Positions 47,205 through 64,000 of a stretch of 64,000 nt of DNA are shown one piece after another. Both the position numbers and the translations under genes were made by a program. How positions within the stretch are numbered: position 1 is the first letter of the stretch; each line of letters starts with the position of its first letter. Under the pieces are notes generated by a model. The model did no database searches. It worked only from the letters and a program-made list of their open reading frames with translations, and was not told the origin of the DNA. Location of the stretch: positions 9,963 to 73,962 of the forward strand of contig QMVG01000005.1 of the NCBI GenBank assembly GCA_003660975.1. Direction: 5' to 3'. Source of the DNA: Candidatus Micrarchaeota archaeon. GTDB taxonomy: Archaea > B1Sed10-29 > B47-G15.

Positions 47205-47939
47205 ATGGGAATGAAAAAAGAAGGTTTAAAACTGTTTGAGAATGGAAAAAGAATTGACGGAAGGGCATATGATGAACTGAGACCGATAAAGATGGAGGTA
47301 GGTGTCTTAAAAAGAGCAGATGGTTCCTGCTACCTTGAGTGGGGAGGAAACAAGGTTTTAGCAGCTGTGTACGGACCCAGAGAATGTTTGCCTAGGCACA
47401 CACAAGACCCTTTGAAAGCAAGAATAAATTACAGGTATAATATGGCTCCTTTCAGCACAGATGAGAGAGTGAGGCCAGGACCCAGTAGGCGAAGCATTGA
47501 AATATCAAAGCTCAGCAAAGAAGCCCTAGAACATGTGATTTTTACGGAATACTTTCCAAAAACCAGTATAGATATATTCGTTGAGATATTGCAAGCAGAT
47601 GCAGGAACTCGCTGTGCTGGTCTAACGGCAGCTAGCCTTGCGCTTGCTGATGCAGGCATACCTATGAAAAGCTTGATAACTGCCTGTGCTGCTGGGAAGA
47701 TAGATGGGAAAGTCGTATTGGACTTAGGAAAGCTAGAGGATAACTTTGGGGAAGCAGATTTGCCAATTGCATACATGCCAAGGACAAAGGAACTTGTCTA
47801 TCTTCAGATGGATGGTGACTTAACAAAAGATGAGTTTAAGGAAGCACTAAGATTGGCGCTGAAAGGTTGCGATGAGATATATAGAATTCAGAGAGATGCT
47901 TTGAAAAAAGCTTATGAAGGTGAAGTAAATGGTAGATGA
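47205..47939 (+). CDS. rrp41: Exosome subunit Rrp41
   Basis: RIDGR..DELRP, ADGS, YGPRE, PSRRSIEIS, ADAGTR. Confidence 0.96.
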   Translation: MGMKKEGLKLFENGKRIDGRAYDELRPIKMEVGVLKRADGSCYLEWGGNKVLAAVYGPRECLPRHTQDPLKARINYRYNMAPFSTDERVRPGPSRRSIEISKLSKEALEHVIFTEYFPKTSIDIFVEILQADAGTRCAGLTAASLALADAGIPMKSLITACAAGKIDGKVVLDLGKLEDNFGEADLPIAYMPRTKELVYLQMDGDLTKDEFKEALRLALKGCDEIYRIQRDALKKAYEGEVNGR

Positions 47940-48723
47940 AAATGAAATTGTGTGGTTAGTAAAAAAGGACGCTGTAGCAGATATGATAAAAAATGGAAAG
48001 AGAAGTGATGGAAGAAAAGCATATGAATACAGGCCTATTGAGATAATTACAGATTATGTGAAAAGAGCAGAAGGCAGTGCATATATAAAACTTGGAAACA
48101 CACAAATCTTGGTGGGCGTGAAAATGGATGTGGGCCAGCCATACTCCGATTCTCCAAATATGGGAACATTGATAACTAACGCTGAGCTTGTTCCTCTGGC
48201 TTCTCCTGTTTTTCAGCCAGGCCCTCCTAACGAAAACGCAATAGAACTGGCAAGAGTTGTTGATAGAGGCATAAGAGAGAGCAAGATGATTGACTTTGAA
48301 AAACTGTGCATCACAGAAGGCGAAGAGGTCTGGAATGTGCTAATAGACATCCACGTCCTTGATTTTGACGGAAACTTAATAGATGCAGCAACTTTGGCGG
48401 CTGTTAAAGCTTTGTGGACTGCAAAGATGCCAAGATATGAGGATGGAAAGGTGATATACGAGGACAAAAAGGATAGTCTTCCTGTCAGCAAAAAGCCAGT
48501 GGCTTGCACCTTTGCAAGATTTGGCAATGTAAGTATTTTAGACCCTTCTTTAGAAGAAGAAAAAAGCATGGACGGCAAAATAACCATTACCACAACTGAC
48601 GATGGGAAGATATGCGCTGTACAGAAAAGCGGGATAACTAAAATTAGCGTTCCTGAGCTTGAAAATTTGATAGACGTTGCCCTTGAGAAGGGAAATGAAA
48701 TTAGAAAGACTTACTTAGGGTGA
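47929..48723 (+). CDS. rrp42: Exosome subunit Rrp42
   Basis: R.DGR...YR, AEGSA, GPP.ENAIELARVVDRGIRES, DGNLIDA. Confidence 0.96.
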   Translation: MVDENEIVWLVKKDAVADMIKNGKRSDGRKAYEYRPIEIITDYVKRAEGSAYIKLGNTQILVGVKMDVGQPYSDSPNMGTLITNAELVPLASPVFQPGPPNENAIELARVVDRGIRESKMIDFEKLCITEGEEVWNVLIDIHVLDFDGNLIDAATLAAVKALWTAKMPRYEDGKVIYEDKKDSLPVSKKPVACTFARFGNVSILDPSLEEEKSMDGKITITTTDDGKICAVQKSGITKISVPELENLIDVALEKGNEIRKTYLG

Positions 48724-48727
48724 TAAG

Positions 48728-49051
48728 ATGAAAAAGAAGAAAGGAAAACTGGGAAGCGCTGCCAGATACGGAGCAAGATACAGTTCTGTCTTGAAACAAA
48801 AAGTAAACAAAATCGAGAAGATTCAAAAAAGACCTCAAATATGTCCACAGTGTGGCAGAAAGTCATTGAAAAGAGTGAGCTTTGCCATATGGGAGTGCAG
48901 CAAATGCGGTCTAATAATGGCTGGCGGGGCATACAGCCCGCGAACTAGAATAGGGCTGGCTGCTGAAAAGATAGTTAGTGGGAAGGGAAGCAAAGAAGAG
49001 GTGCTATCTCTTCTGGAAGAAGAGAATAAAGAAGAGAAGGTGGAGGCATGA
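48728..49051 (+). CDS. rpl37ae: 50S ribosomal protein eL43 (L37Ae)
   Basis: RYGARY, CPQCG, IWECSKCG, AGGAY. Confidence 0.93.
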   Translation: MKKKKGKLGSAARYGARYSSVLKQKVNKIEKIQKRPQICPQCGRKSLKRVSFAIWECSKCGLIMAGGAYSPRTRIGLAAEKIVSGKGSKEEVLSLLEEENKEEKVEA

Positions 49052-49176
49052 CTTGGAAGTGTTTTAGGTGTGGAAAGAAAATTGATGACATAAATGCAGT
49101 AAAATGCCCTTACTGTGGATATAGGATTCTCATTAAAGAAAGACCTCCCATTGCAAAGAAACTGAGAACTGACTGA
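49048..49176 (+). CDS. rpoP: RNA polymerase subunit P (Rpo12)
   Basis: Manual translation MTWKCFRCGKKIDDINAVKCPYCGYRILIKERPPIAKKLRTD*; below the ORF-track cutoff; conserved synteny. Confidence 0.92.
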   Translation: MTWKCFRCGKKIDDINAVKCPYCGYRILIKERPPIAKKLRTD

Positions 49177-49181
49177 GTTTT

Positions 49182-49649
49182 ATGTTGTTGATAAGCAGTT
49201 CCAGAAAACCTTCAAGGAAGACAAGGACTTTAGCCAGGCAGTTAGCAAAAGCAGTGCCTCACTCGCGTTATATCACAAGGGGAAAGAAAAATATTGATGC
49301 CTTATGTTCAGAAGCACGGCGCTTGGGTTATTCAAGAATTGCTATCATATATGAAAAACACGGCAATCCAAGTCAGATCCACTTTATAGAGAACCACGTA
49401 GATTCGTGGGAATGGCTTCCTGAAATAATCCAGATAGAGCACAGTAGTATCAATGAAAAAATAAAAAAGGCGTTTGAGGAAATTAAAGTACTGGGTGAAA
49501 ACAAGGATAAGATAACAAAGCTGTTTAACACAGAAACATCAGATGAAACAGAAAATGTCATAGAGGCTGAAAAAAATACCATCAAGGTTAAAAAGCATAA
49601 AAAGGAATTTGTGTTCATAAAGTATAGGATAATAAAAAAGGAGGTTTAA
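49182..49649 (+). CDS. Brix-domain ribosome biogenesis protein
   Basis: SSRKPS.KTR, RGK, E.HGNP motifs. Confidence 0.85.
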   Translation: MLLISSSRKPSRKTRTLARQLAKAVPHSRYITRGKKNIDALCSEARRLGYSRIAIIYEKHGNPSQIHFIENHVDSWEWLPEIIQIEHSSINEKIKKAFEEIKVLGENKDKITKLFNTETSDETENVIEAEKNTIKVKKHKKEFVFIKYRIIKKEV

Positions 49650-49651
49650 GG

Positions 49652-49993
49652 ATGGCAGAAGAAGATTTGCAAAAGCAGTTGGTCTTTGCAGATAGCCTGC
49701 AGAGGCAATTGCAGAACATATTAGGACAAAAACAGTTCTTGGAATTGGAAAATGTTCAGATAAACAACAGCTTGGCTGAGCTTGAGAAAGCCAAAGGCAA
49801 GGTATTTAAGGCAGTTGGAAATGTCCTTATTGAAAAAGACGTGAAAAAACTTATAGATGAGCTCAATGAAAAGAAAAAACAAAACGACGAGAAAATAGAA
49901 AAGCTTAAAAAGCAGGAAGAAATGATTAACTCAAAATTAACCGAGGTGCAGAAGGGCATTGAGGAGAAGCTGAAAAATAAGAAGAATGAATAA
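49652..49993 (+). CDS. pfdB: Prefoldin beta subunit
   Basis: Coiled coils flanking VFKAVGNVLI hairpin. Confidence 0.9.
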   Translation: MAEEDLQKQLVFADSLQRQLQNILGQKQFLELENVQINNSLAELEKAKGKVFKAVGNVLIEKDVKKLIDELNEKKKQNDEKIEKLKKQEEMINSKLTEVQKGIEEKLKNKKNE

Positions 49994-50040
49994 GCTTTAA
50001 ATATGAATACTGGTTTATAGAATAGAGAGGCTGATTTGCT

Positions 50041-50280
50041 ATGTATAAGCTAAGCGATGTTTATGGAAAGAGGATATTTGACCAGCATAGTAATTTCATA
50101 GGCACTGCGCGAGATGTGCTTATAGACCCTGCAGAGAAAAGGATAAAGTTTTTGCTCAAAGAAGACCCTATGAGCATTCTTGGAAGGGATAGAGTAGAAG
50201 CCAAGAAATTCATAAAAGAAAACTTCATTCCTTTTGAAAAAGTAATTGCCATAGGTGACATAATCATATTAAAGGAGTAA
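50041..50280 (+). CDS. PRC-barrel protein (CdpB-like)
   Basis: LSD.YGK.I......IG...DV.ID, IPF..V.AIGDII. Confidence 0.85.
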   Translation: MYKLSDVYGKRIFDQHSNFIGTARDVLIDPAEKRIKFLLKEDPMSILGRDRVEAKKFIKENFIPFEKVIAIGDIIILKE

Positions 50281-50286
50281 GGTATT

Positions 50287-50529
50287 ATGAAGCCAGTAAT
50301 AGGAAAAAAATTAAAAGGAAGGGCCGTGGTAAGCACAGCAGGTTTGAGATTGGGAGAGGTTCTGGACGTGTATTTTGAGCGCGGCGGAGAGCTTCTTAGC
50401 CTGGTGGTGAAACCAGAGAAAATAACAAAAGACATAGAAGAGTACATAAATCCAAACAATCTCATTGAGGTGCCTTTTGAAAAAGTACAGGCAATAGGCA
50501 GGTATGTTATCGTTGATTTTCCGTTCTGA
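50287..50529 (+). CDS. PRC-barrel protein (CdpB-like)
   Basis: L.GR.V....G..LG.V.D, VPF..V.AIG.YVIV. Confidence 0.85.
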   Translation: MKPVIGKKLKGRAVVSTAGLRLGEVLDVYFERGGELLSLVVKPEKITKDIEEYINPNNLIEVPFEKVQAIGRYVIVDFPF

Positions 50530-50587
50530 ACTTCTTTTTTATTAATTTTTATAATGAATGCCCTTAGCTGCTTTTCTTTTAAAAAGA

Positions 50588-50722
50588 GAAAAAGGCAAAT
50601 GTGGTTGTGGAGAGGCAGGGAAACCACACAAATGACCCCTTTGGCTGGGTGAGCCTTCTCCCATGCCTCTCCTAATTATTAACAACCGTTTCCTTCCTGC
50701 CTCTTAAGCCAACTCACCTCCA
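50588..50722 (-). ncRNA. Candidate structured small RNA
   Basis: GC-rich island downstream of minus-strand TTTTATATA (50752-50744), several long complementary segments, ends in a U-tract. Confidence 0.45.
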
Positions 50723-50965
50723 ATAGTTATAATGAACAAGTGATATATAAAACTATCGTTTATGTAAAAAATTGGCACAGAAATCCATATAAATAGTATA
50801 CAATTGTTCAATTATTTAAGTATAAGTTGGATAAATGTCTATATGTATATAAATAGGTTAAAATCAACACGAAGAATTAGGGCCATCATTGGCAGTTTCT
50901 TAAGGGCGCGCAGATATATAAAGATTTTGTCAAAGCTTAATAAAGTGCTCTTTCTTACTTTATTT

Positions 50966-51989
50966 ATGGGAGTAGATTACCGTAAGCATTTAAGAAACGT
51001 TAAGAAAACTTTGGAGATGCGAGCGCTTCTCTTTGGCGCTGACCTTACATATGTAAGCGGCTGGCCTTCTTCTTACTCAGAAAGCTATGATTGCCTGCTT
51101 ACTGGAAGGCAAAATTACCTATTTACTTGGGATTATGAAGTTTTTAAAAGGGTGAGTAAAAAGATAGCTGTAAGGCACGGAAAAAATCTAAAAACTTTTT
51201 TGGAAAGCAAACGCATAAAAGAGCTTGGAATCAGGAAGGATAAGATAAGCTATAAGCTCTACCAAAAATTAAGCAGAAAAACACGTTTGATAGATATATC
51301 AGAGGAACTGAAAAAAATAAGGAGCGTGAAGGATACTGAAGAAATAAAAGCGATAAAAAAAGCATGCAGCTATGCAGACAAAGCAATGGGAGTAGCTATG
51401 GAAGTAGTTAGAGAAGGTGTTAGTGAAAGAAAGGTTAGAAATGAGATTTTGCATGCTGTGATGGATGAATGTGAAAGCATTGCTTTTGAGCCGATAGTGG
51501 CAAGCGGAAGGAATTCATTATATATTCACATACTGCCAGAAAAAAAGAAGATAAAAAAGGCAGAAACAGTAATCGTAGACATCGGCTTTAAAGTAAACAA
51601 TTACTGCTCTGATTTAAGCAGGACTTTTATAGTAAAGCCAAGCAAAAAGCAGAAGGAATTGTATGAGAAGGTGCTTGAAGCCCAAAATGTGGCAATGGAC
51701 TTAGCTTACCCTGGCGTGAAGGCCTCTGAAATATCAAAAGCCGTTGATGATTTTTTTCAAAAGCAAAGGCCTTGATAAATATGTCAAATATGCTCTTGGT
51801 CATGGTGTGGGAATAGAGGTTCACGAAAGCCCTTTGATAAGCTCAAAAAGCAAAGACCTGCTGCATGAGAACACAGTATTCACGCTGGAACCTGGCCTGC
51901 ACATTCCAAAGCTAGGAGGCATACGCATAGAAGACACCTTTGTCATGACAAAAAAAGGCCCGAAAGCATTAACAAAGGTTGAAAAATAA
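50966..51989 (+). pseudogene. pepQ: Xaa-Pro aminopeptidase (M24), split by a +1 frameshift in a T7 run
   Basis: R.VK..EE, D.G...Y.SD..RT in ORF1; GHGVG.EVHE, EPG, GIRIED in ORF2; removing one T at 51751-51757 joins them. Confidence 0.8.

Positions 51990-63134: not shown

Positions 63135-64000
<866 letters not shown>

Follow-up and report, generated by a model that had tools for sequence, protein, structure and literature searches.

A probable noncoding RNA family with a near-invariant hairpin loop in a phylum of small-genome archaea

Archaeal single-hairpin H/ACA small RNAs (sRNAs) are small, independently transcribed molecules built from one long hairpin. Y and vault RNAs are short scaffolds of ribonucleoprotein (RNP) particles, and the conserved protein site of Y RNAs lies in the stem formed by the two ends of the molecule. 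The preQ1-I aptamer is a small H-type pseudoknot, and the Hgc RNAs are G+C-rich orphan sRNAs of A+T-rich archaea that are included in Rfam. DPANN archaea have tiny genomes and are almost all uncultivated, and to our knowledge little has been described of their noncoding RNAs (ncRNAs) beyond ribosomal RNA (rRNA), transfer RNA (tRNA), signal recognition particle (SRP) RNA and RNase P RNA. Here we describe a locus in a stretch of 64,000 nucleotides (the window) from a Candidatus Micrarchaeota archaeon (contig QMVG01000005.1), whose minus strand carries at positions 50589-50721 what is very probably a real structured ncRNA gene of a new, uncatalogued family. Its long hairpin, its invariant loop motif and its promoter are above chance and are backed by homologues.

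The RNA shares some traits with each of these systems and lacks others. Like single-hairpin H/ACA sRNAs, it is small, appears to be independently transcribed and contains one long hairpin, and in the window copy an ACA follows the stem (50606-50608). However, the stem is continuous save for 1-3 nucleotides (nt), and the family has neither an internal pseudouridylation pocket nor a GA-type kink turn (K-turn) or K-loop. By our own reading an ACA follows the stem in 2 of 24 members, and the conserved part of the molecule is the apical loop rather than guide strands. The best Rfam H/ACA match, SNORA38, scores 12.5 bits against a gathering score of 60 bits. The resemblance to box C/D sRNAs lies in size and genomic setting, and only in members from archaeal families f5 and f6 (L027, L030, L120) is the foot of the long hairpin bordered by UGAUGA-like and CUGA-like strings. 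These strings are absent from most members, and the window RNA has neither RUGAUGA nor CUGA; it also lacks 12-nt guides, and its geometry does not suit a C/D K-turn.

Similarly, the family may be likened to Y and vault RNAs, in that short RNAs with their own promoter occur as two or three paralogues per genome and combine one conserved element, here taken to bind a protein, with an otherwise variable body. There is no homology, and the conserved site occupies the end stem in Y RNA whereas it occupies the loop here. The possible topology of the loop, with two stems of 3-4 base pairs (bp) and an A/U-rich third loop, recalls aptamers of the preQ1-I type, from which the RNA differs in having no sequence similarity, no Rfam match and no downstream gene to control. 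As with the Hgc RNAs, an orphan structured sRNA stands out as a G+C island, with no match to the Hgc families of Rfam and in another lineage.

The hairpin, its loop and its promoter

Type A members of the family, among them the window copy, follow a common plan: a TATA box, a variable 5′ domain, the hairpin P2 with a loop of about 33 nt, a pyrimidine-rich tail and usually a run of T residues. The lower stem of P2 has about 9 bp and its upper stem about 5 bp, with an interruption of only 1-3 nt. Covariance model R1, whose seed consists of three members from family f10 with a hand-drawn structure and does not include the window copy, finds all 18 type A sequences then in hand (E ≤ 1.5e-4). It matches positions 50597-50673 on the minus strand of the window with 30 bits (E = 4.6e-5), and a second model, R2, built from the 18 type A sequences, gives 61.1 bits there.

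Among these 18 aligned sequences, all 14 of the 14 P2 pairs have changed on both sides. Standard pairs fill 94.8% of 233 cells in this model-fitted alignment, a share that drops to 54.6-66.5% if the 3′ partners are shifted by 1-3 columns, and none of 500 column shuffles reaches any of five P2 measures. RNAalifold predicts the same 14 pairs from the same alignment. A single pair can appear in as many as five types (GC, CG, UA, AU and GU), a diversity at single positions that is hard to explain unless the hairpin is real. Because the pair tables hold more G-U cells (14) than A-C cells (4), the minus strand is favored as the one that functions as RNA. By comparison, the single-sequence fold of the window RNA is at chance (minimum free energy -48.5 kcal/mol, z = -1.72, with 12 of 200 shuffles folding as well) and alone would not prove a structured RNA.

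The loop opens with the motif AGGCYCACCCRGCCAAWRGGG (50636-50656), which contains the 15-mer core GGCTCACCCAGCCAA. Its columns are invariant in all 18 aligned members save for four two-fold positions (Y, R, W and R), so that 16 of 20 loop positions are fixed across the phylum; further changes are an A to G in L092, an A to G in L047 and a C to U in L097. In general form, (A)GGCYCACCCRGCCAAWRGGG begins the loop and is followed by 6-13 bases that are variable and A/U-rich. With covarying stems and GGCYCACCCRGCCAAWRGGG at the 5′ side of the loop, the window RNA belongs to this loop-motif hairpin family. The parts of the window copy are as follows, both ends of the transcript being placed by inference, the 5′ end from the promoter and the 3′ end from the first T5 run.

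50744-50751, minus strand: TATA box TTTATATA, an archaeal-type promoter element that ends 22 nt upstream of the proposed 5′ G
50589-50721, minus strand: proposed transcript of about 133 nt
50721, minus strand: proposed 5′ G, the start of GGAGGTGAG, 22 nt downstream of the TATA box
50673-50721, minus strand: variable 5′ domain, which opens with GGAGGUGA (50714-50721) and contains TTG-GCT-TAA (50704-50712)
50688-50704, minus strand: alternative 5′ strand AGAGGCAGGAAGGAAAC, within the variable 5′ domain
50657-50672, minus strand: 5′ arm of P2, GGAGAGGCATGGGAGA, that is GGAGAGGCA-U-GGGAGA, within the covariance-model match (50597-50673)
50636-50656, minus strand: near-invariant loop motif AGGCUCACCCAGCCAAAGGGG (family consensus GGCYCACCCRGCCAAWRGGG)
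50624-50635, minus strand: A/U-rich variable 3′ part of the loop, UCAUUUGUGUGG, which differs in length and sequence among members
50609-50623, minus strand: 3′ arm of P2, TTTCCCTGCCTCTCC, that is UUUCCC-UGCCUCUCC, the covarying partner of the 5′ arm
50581-50608, minus strand: 3′ tail ACAACCACAUUUGCC followed by two T5 runs, a likely site of termination

The promoter is a recurrent feature. A TATA-like octamer ends 18-26 nt before the 5′ GGAG in 19 of 24 members, compared with 28 of 658 control GGAG sites in the same loci, a count in which some 5′ ends were picked by eye with the TATA box in view. At the other end of the gene, a run of at least five T residues lies within 110 nt past the motif in 14 of 24 members, in two of which it falls inside the loop. 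The T5 runs of the window copy lie at 50581-50593 and end at 50589 and 50581 on the minus strand, and the 3′ end may reach the second of these. By our own count on the alignment, the tail has a CCC within 11 nt in 12 of 18 members. The G+C fraction is 0.51 across the RNA stretch and 0.22-0.33 in the flanking windows.

The 5′ GGAG end forms the 5′ strand of a local hairpin of at least 5 bp in 17 of 24 members, and the variants covary (GGAGGU/ACCUCU, GGAGAU/AUCUCC, GGUGAU/AUCACC and GUGGA/UCCAC). Case by case this 5′ hairpin, P1, is weak against shuffled sequences (median shuffle p 0.34), and in the window copy the local hairpin is poor. We regard P1 as plausible.

A first-pass annotation made from the letters of the window had already described this stretch as a promoter-bearing, structured small RNA that ends in a U-tract, and all of the strings that it quoted are present on the minus strand. 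The homologues uphold that outline: the 22-nt spacing from the TATA box finds its counterpart in the 19 of 24 members counted above, and P2 covaries strongly.

Distribution and paralogues

BLASTN searches of 41 related genomes reveal a further copy within the genome of the window (C1:141796-141848, 91% identical in its core), along with short matches of 88-93% identity in three other families of the order, all of which carry GGCTCACCCAGCCAA. When up to one mismatch is allowed, 12 of the 18 order genomes and 20 of the 31 class genomes contain this 15-mer, frequently in two places; a reversed control pattern yields 2 matches. In the collection used here the class is equivalent to the phylum (31 genomes), whose metagenome-assembled genomes (MAGs) are labelled Iainarchaeum, Micrarchaeota or Nanobdellati. 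Model R2 detects the RNA in 19 of the 31 phylum genomes. By family, its matches cover five of five genomes in f2, two of two in f6, five of six in f9, three of four in f10 and none of six in f4.

Beyond the phylum, a model search gives 0 matches in 151 genomes sampled from a different archaeal phylum whose genomes are likewise small, and a search in the phylum of G034, represented by one genome only, finds nothing. A scan of one genome per GTDB species locates the exact 20-mer GGCYCACCCRGCCAAWRGGG at 30 loci, 12 of which are identical to loci already known from these archaeal genomes, in records titled Candidatus Micrarchaeota archaeon, Candidatus Iainarchaeum archaeon, Nanobdellati archaeon or archaeon. 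The remaining 18 comprise one in a Haloferacaceae MAG and 17 in bacteria, all within G+C-rich sequence, and our own arithmetic puts the number expected by chance at about 17. A motif search of a metagenome collection adds 27 loci, of which 12 bear the RNA, five of these being new distinct sequences. As far as searched, the family is confined to the small-genome archaeal phylum of the window.

The second type A copy of the window's genome (G000 C1:141796-141861, plus strand; L020:1431-1555) has its own TATA box, a GUGGA/UCCAC 5′ hairpin and an identical loop. It adjoins a gene for a 340-amino-acid (aa) tandem Lrp/AsnC regulator.

Many genomes also carry a paralogue of a second form, type B, encoded on the same strand as type A and 330-780 nt upstream of it (for example L023, L024, L025, L026, L030 at 2246-2307 minus, L092 and L125). 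Its closing helix covaries across lineages (GGAGAGGA/UCCUCUCC, GGAAAGGUG/CACCUUUCC, GGUGCC/GGCACC and GGGGUAA/UUACCC), and the 15-nt motif recurs on the 5′ side of its loop, accompanied by an inner hairpin and with no GGG following it. The tandem copies have the same orientation and are not inverted. Within the window no type B copy lies upstream of the RNA. A relative from family f4 (G012, L019) has the exact 15-nt motif behind its own TATA box in a different scaffold, where R2 is blank. Because what all of these forms share is the motif displayed in the loop, the loop rather than the stems would be the working part.

One further element in the window's genome (G000 contig C8, near 21891, minus strand) is intergenic and multi-hairpin. 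Its GGCUCACCCAGC, with 12 of the 15 motif bases, sits between two hairpins that a 10-bp closing helix encloses, and the element may represent a third relative that has diverged.

Known RNAs, coding capacity and genomic setting

When the window is searched with Rfam 15 (4227 models), only 16S rRNA and two tRNAs pass the gathering thresholds. At the locus itself, with E values up to 10, the best matches score 10-16 bits against gathering scores of 44-100, and searches of 16 homologous loci give no match at the RNA. The RNA thus matches no catalogued family and is new in that sense, which agrees with the first-pass expectation of a novel molecule devoid of tRNA, SRP, RNase P or C/D hallmarks. ARAGORN identifies tRNA-Cys and tRNA-Ala alone, neither of them at the locus. 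In relatives, the Rfam tRNA matches fall downstream of the RNA and not on it. Other contigs of the genome hold full-length copies of SRP RNA (C4, 163.2 bits), RNase P RNA (C3, 162 bits) and 5S rRNA (C3, 75.8 bits), and local alignment of the RNA to these three yields matches of 10-20 nt only, which we take as chance. By-eye checks for a triplex of the tail with the purine strand, a bulge-helix-bulge splicing motif and a K-turn at the stem base find that the needed bases are not kept. A literature search that included the motif strings returned nothing on this RNA, and the sole match to a motif string was a human-genetics paper.

Nor does the locus have coding potential for a small protein. Neither the two-codon open reading frame (ORF) nor a 47-aa ORF (50542-50685) corresponds to a reading frame that is conserved among homologues. 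Specifically, the frame in which the motif is read differs between the window and L002, two frames in family f10 run into stops after the motif, and a start codon is missing from the same-genome paralogue (L020).

The RNA gene sits between a plus-strand PRC-barrel gene (50287-50529) and an M24 peptidase gene (ORF 50804-51775). The PRC-barrel gene is the second of two, a pair with Pfam matches that is kept in seven relatives, and the RNA is convergent with this pair in the window and in seven relatives of the order. On the minus strand, a 188-aa ORF (50061-50627) has no match when searched against Pfam, and it overlaps both plus-strand PRC-barrel genes. Because this unmatched ORF overlaps conserved genes, there is no credible gene for the RNA to lead into, as had been noted at first pass. 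A riboswitch or other cis-acting leader was likewise rejected, given the convergent arrangement with the PRC-barrel genes and the tRNA genes that follow the RNA in families f9 and f10.

A gene whose conserved product of 205-234 aa carries HTH_3 at its N terminus (59-83% identity between families) is divergent from the sRNA pair in families f2, f5 and f6 (L023-L030 and metagenome loci, e.g. L028:1883-2587), and the M24 peptidase gene takes that place in the window. Families f9 to f11 have neither the PRC-barrel nor the HTH_3 neighbor; there, intron-containing tRNA genes follow the RNA. At f9 and f10 loci L038 and L040-L044, the Rfam matches to the same-strand downstream tRNA genes span 91-162 nt, which points to long introns, and in L042 a weak sR14-like C/D match (E = 0.18) lies between tRNA genes.

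The window is archaeal, with the 5′ part of a 16S rRNA gene at 63135-64000. This gene is split by the contig end, and its 3′ part lies with the 23S gene at the end of contig C3 (113324-117234). The assembly comprises 1.33 Mb in 130 contigs, and the genomes of relatives measure 0.3-1.2 Mb. Upstream on the plus strand, a gene run at 47929-50529 encodes an RNase PH-type subunit, L37ae, a 42-aa ORF, a 155-aa ORF, prefoldin beta and the two PRC-barrel proteins; we take it to resemble the archaeal exosome neighborhood, or superoperon.

Possible partners of the loop

We propose that the gene at 50589-50721 on the minus strand would yield an independently transcribed ncRNA of about 130 nt whose stems serve as scaffold only. 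Its loop would be a docking site at which a conserved partner, most likely a protein, is engaged in trans, and the RNA would then either form part of an RNP or titrate an RNA-binding protein. Before docking, the loop may adopt a small pseudoknot formed by CCC:GGG and CCAA:UUGG pairs. A protein partner is favored because the 16 fixed bases among 20 exceed what pairing needs, because no encoded complement exists and because the same loop is mounted on unrelated scaffolds. That a structured ncRNA gene is present seems to us very probable, as stated above; the whole account, including a trans-acting loop that docks a protein, is tentative and falls somewhat short of probable.

Several observations weigh against this account. 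R2 has no match in 12 of the 31 phylum genomes, with all six genomes of family f4 among them, and in these the RNA is either dispensable or too diverged; their completeness of 61-98% is to be considered when the absences are weighed. Gene neighborhoods offer no RNA-binding candidate protein, the PRC-barrel pair and HTH_3 being syntenic within the order only. The variable motif positions change by transitions only, a pattern that wobble pairing to a fixed RNA would also give, and a short seed of 6-9 nt acting against an RNA target is possible. The fitting of the P2 alignment to the model favors the structure, and relatedness among the sequences inflates the shuffle tests. Finally, expression, ends and processing are read from the promoter and the T-run only.

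If the partner were an RNA, then the loop or part of it would pair through a short seed with a conserved messenger RNA, rRNA precursor or tRNA, much as loop-presented seeds are known in bacterial and archaeal sRNAs. Such a regulator would accord with motif substitutions that are all transitions, tolerated by G or U in a fixed target, and with single-stranded presentation of the motif in two different scaffolds. However, the 31 genomes hold almost no complement to the 15-mer beyond the genes' own antisense strands. The wobble-tolerant complement TTGGYYGGGTGRGYY has 30 sites, 29 of which are the antisense strand of the RNA genes themselves (27 known motif sites, and two that adjoin a type A gene and look like type B). 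The single site off the antisense of known copies, G007 C1:33983-33997, is unexplained and could be a target or a diverged copy on the opposite strand. A genome-wide duplex scan with the 21-nt loop in the window's genome returns only coding-region matches on other contigs, some on contigs with 49-54% G+C and one inside a gene for a membrane protein. Scans of rRNA, SRP RNA and 5S rRNA against the loop give energies within genomic background. The 5′ end of RNase P RNA offers an 8-bp match in the window's genome, which falls within helix P1 and which the other genomes compared do not preserve. We therefore judge a base-pairing regulator to be unlikely. Resemblance to a known RNA also underlies a special case of protein docking, in which the loop would imitate one strand of 16S helix 11, the 3′ strand GGCUCACCAAGCC, and titrate or recruit either an assembly factor or a protein of the small subunit. 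In a relative (G016), 14 of the 15 positions of the 15-mer agree with that strand, and in the 16S of the window itself (near 63372) 13 of the 15 do. A 13-nt stretch is nearly identical (GGCUCACC-A/C-AGCC), and helix 11 is the only other near-match (at most two mismatches) in the genome that falls within a known RNA. Here, in contrast, the sequence is an isolated loop strand with no partner strand and with flanks unlike those of helix 11. Nor does it co-vary with the 16S of the same genome: among the 10 genomes that have both, only 6 show the same base at the motif's Y position and in the 16S. Mimicry of this kind is quite unlikely.

The loop might instead do its work as a fold. A small H-type pseudoknot within it (CCC:GGG with CCAA:UUGG) may form, as judged from sequence. 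GGG directly follows the motif in all 18 aligned type A members, and 13 of 18 have a UUG within the final 6 nt of the loop, as compared with a shuffle mean of 3.8 and with none of 2000 shuffles reaching 13. Covariation cannot test this pseudoknot because the CCC:GGG and CCAA:UUG(G) pairs never vary. A loop of this sort could bind a small molecule or process itself, and conserved loop nucleotides set on covarying helices are indeed the usual signature of aptamers and ribozymes. Set against such a ligand-sensing or catalytic role, there is no same-strand downstream ORF in any context seen and no Rfam riboswitch or ribozyme match. Moreover, type B lacks the GGG, and the window copy is among the five members without UUG at the 3′ end of the loop. 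We consider the role quite unlikely. Also unlikely, if less so, is that the invariant loop is a compact pseudoknot serving as the active center of a phylum-specific RNA-protein particle or of a trans-acting sensor.

The first-pass annotation had put forward a bistable switch, in which a Shine-Dalgarno-like 5′ end, a two-codon ORF and competing helices engage the ribosome. The 5′ sequence GGAGGUGA is in fact complementary to 8 nt of the organism's 16S 3′ end, GAUCACCUCCU. In most relatives, though, the 5′ strand at that position pairs in the local hairpin, and GGAGAU replaces GGAGGUGA in family f9. The ORF (TTG-GCT-TAA) is peculiar to the window copy and, as we read the sequences, is absent in relatives, the same-genome paralogue included. 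The proposed pairing of the 5′ end with the loop (GGTGAGTT/GGCTCACC and TTGGCT/AGCCAA), when compared with shuffled 5′ domains, has p = 0.30 in the window and reaches p < 0.05 in none of 24 members. The competing strand AGAGGCAGG-AA-GGAAAC fares better, being real in the window (-18.4 kcal/mol, against -25.7 kcal/mol for the native pairing; p = 0.033), but it attains p < 0.05 in only 3 of 18 members. In family f10 a 3-nt linker after the 5′ hairpin leaves no room for a competitor, and the f9 linker is also too short. By our own reading, the further helix TGTGGTT (50622-50628)/AACCACA (50600-50606) is missing from relatives and even from the same-genome paralogue. Bistability and the pseudoknot between 5′ end and loop thus belong to this one copy, at or near chance. 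The window molecule may be bistable, and this is not a property of the family; as an explanation of the RNA, a ribosome-engaging switch is very unlikely. Still less credible is that the conserved segment acts as DNA, as an intergenic protein-binding site or repeat. The status of the element as RNA does rest on sequence. A DNA element would nevertheless have to account for compensatory changes, for G-U but few A-C cells on one strand, for a promoter at fixed spacing and orientation, and for tandem copies that are not inverted.

Whichever partner a docking loop engages, the RNA occurs in most of the genomes searched in the phylum, often in two or three copies each. That a fixed loop, wide carriage and a dedicated promoter have persisted despite strong genome reduction speaks for a genuine and probably important function. 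The family offers a 20-nt bait for finding the partner and a covariance model for annotating such genomes. If the partner were a translation or ribosome-assembly factor, then the finding would bear on how such organisms cope with a reduced machinery. If the less likely pseudoknot active center were true, then the RNA would constitute a new functional class, carried in two or three paralogous scaffolds per genome, rather than another antisense regulator.

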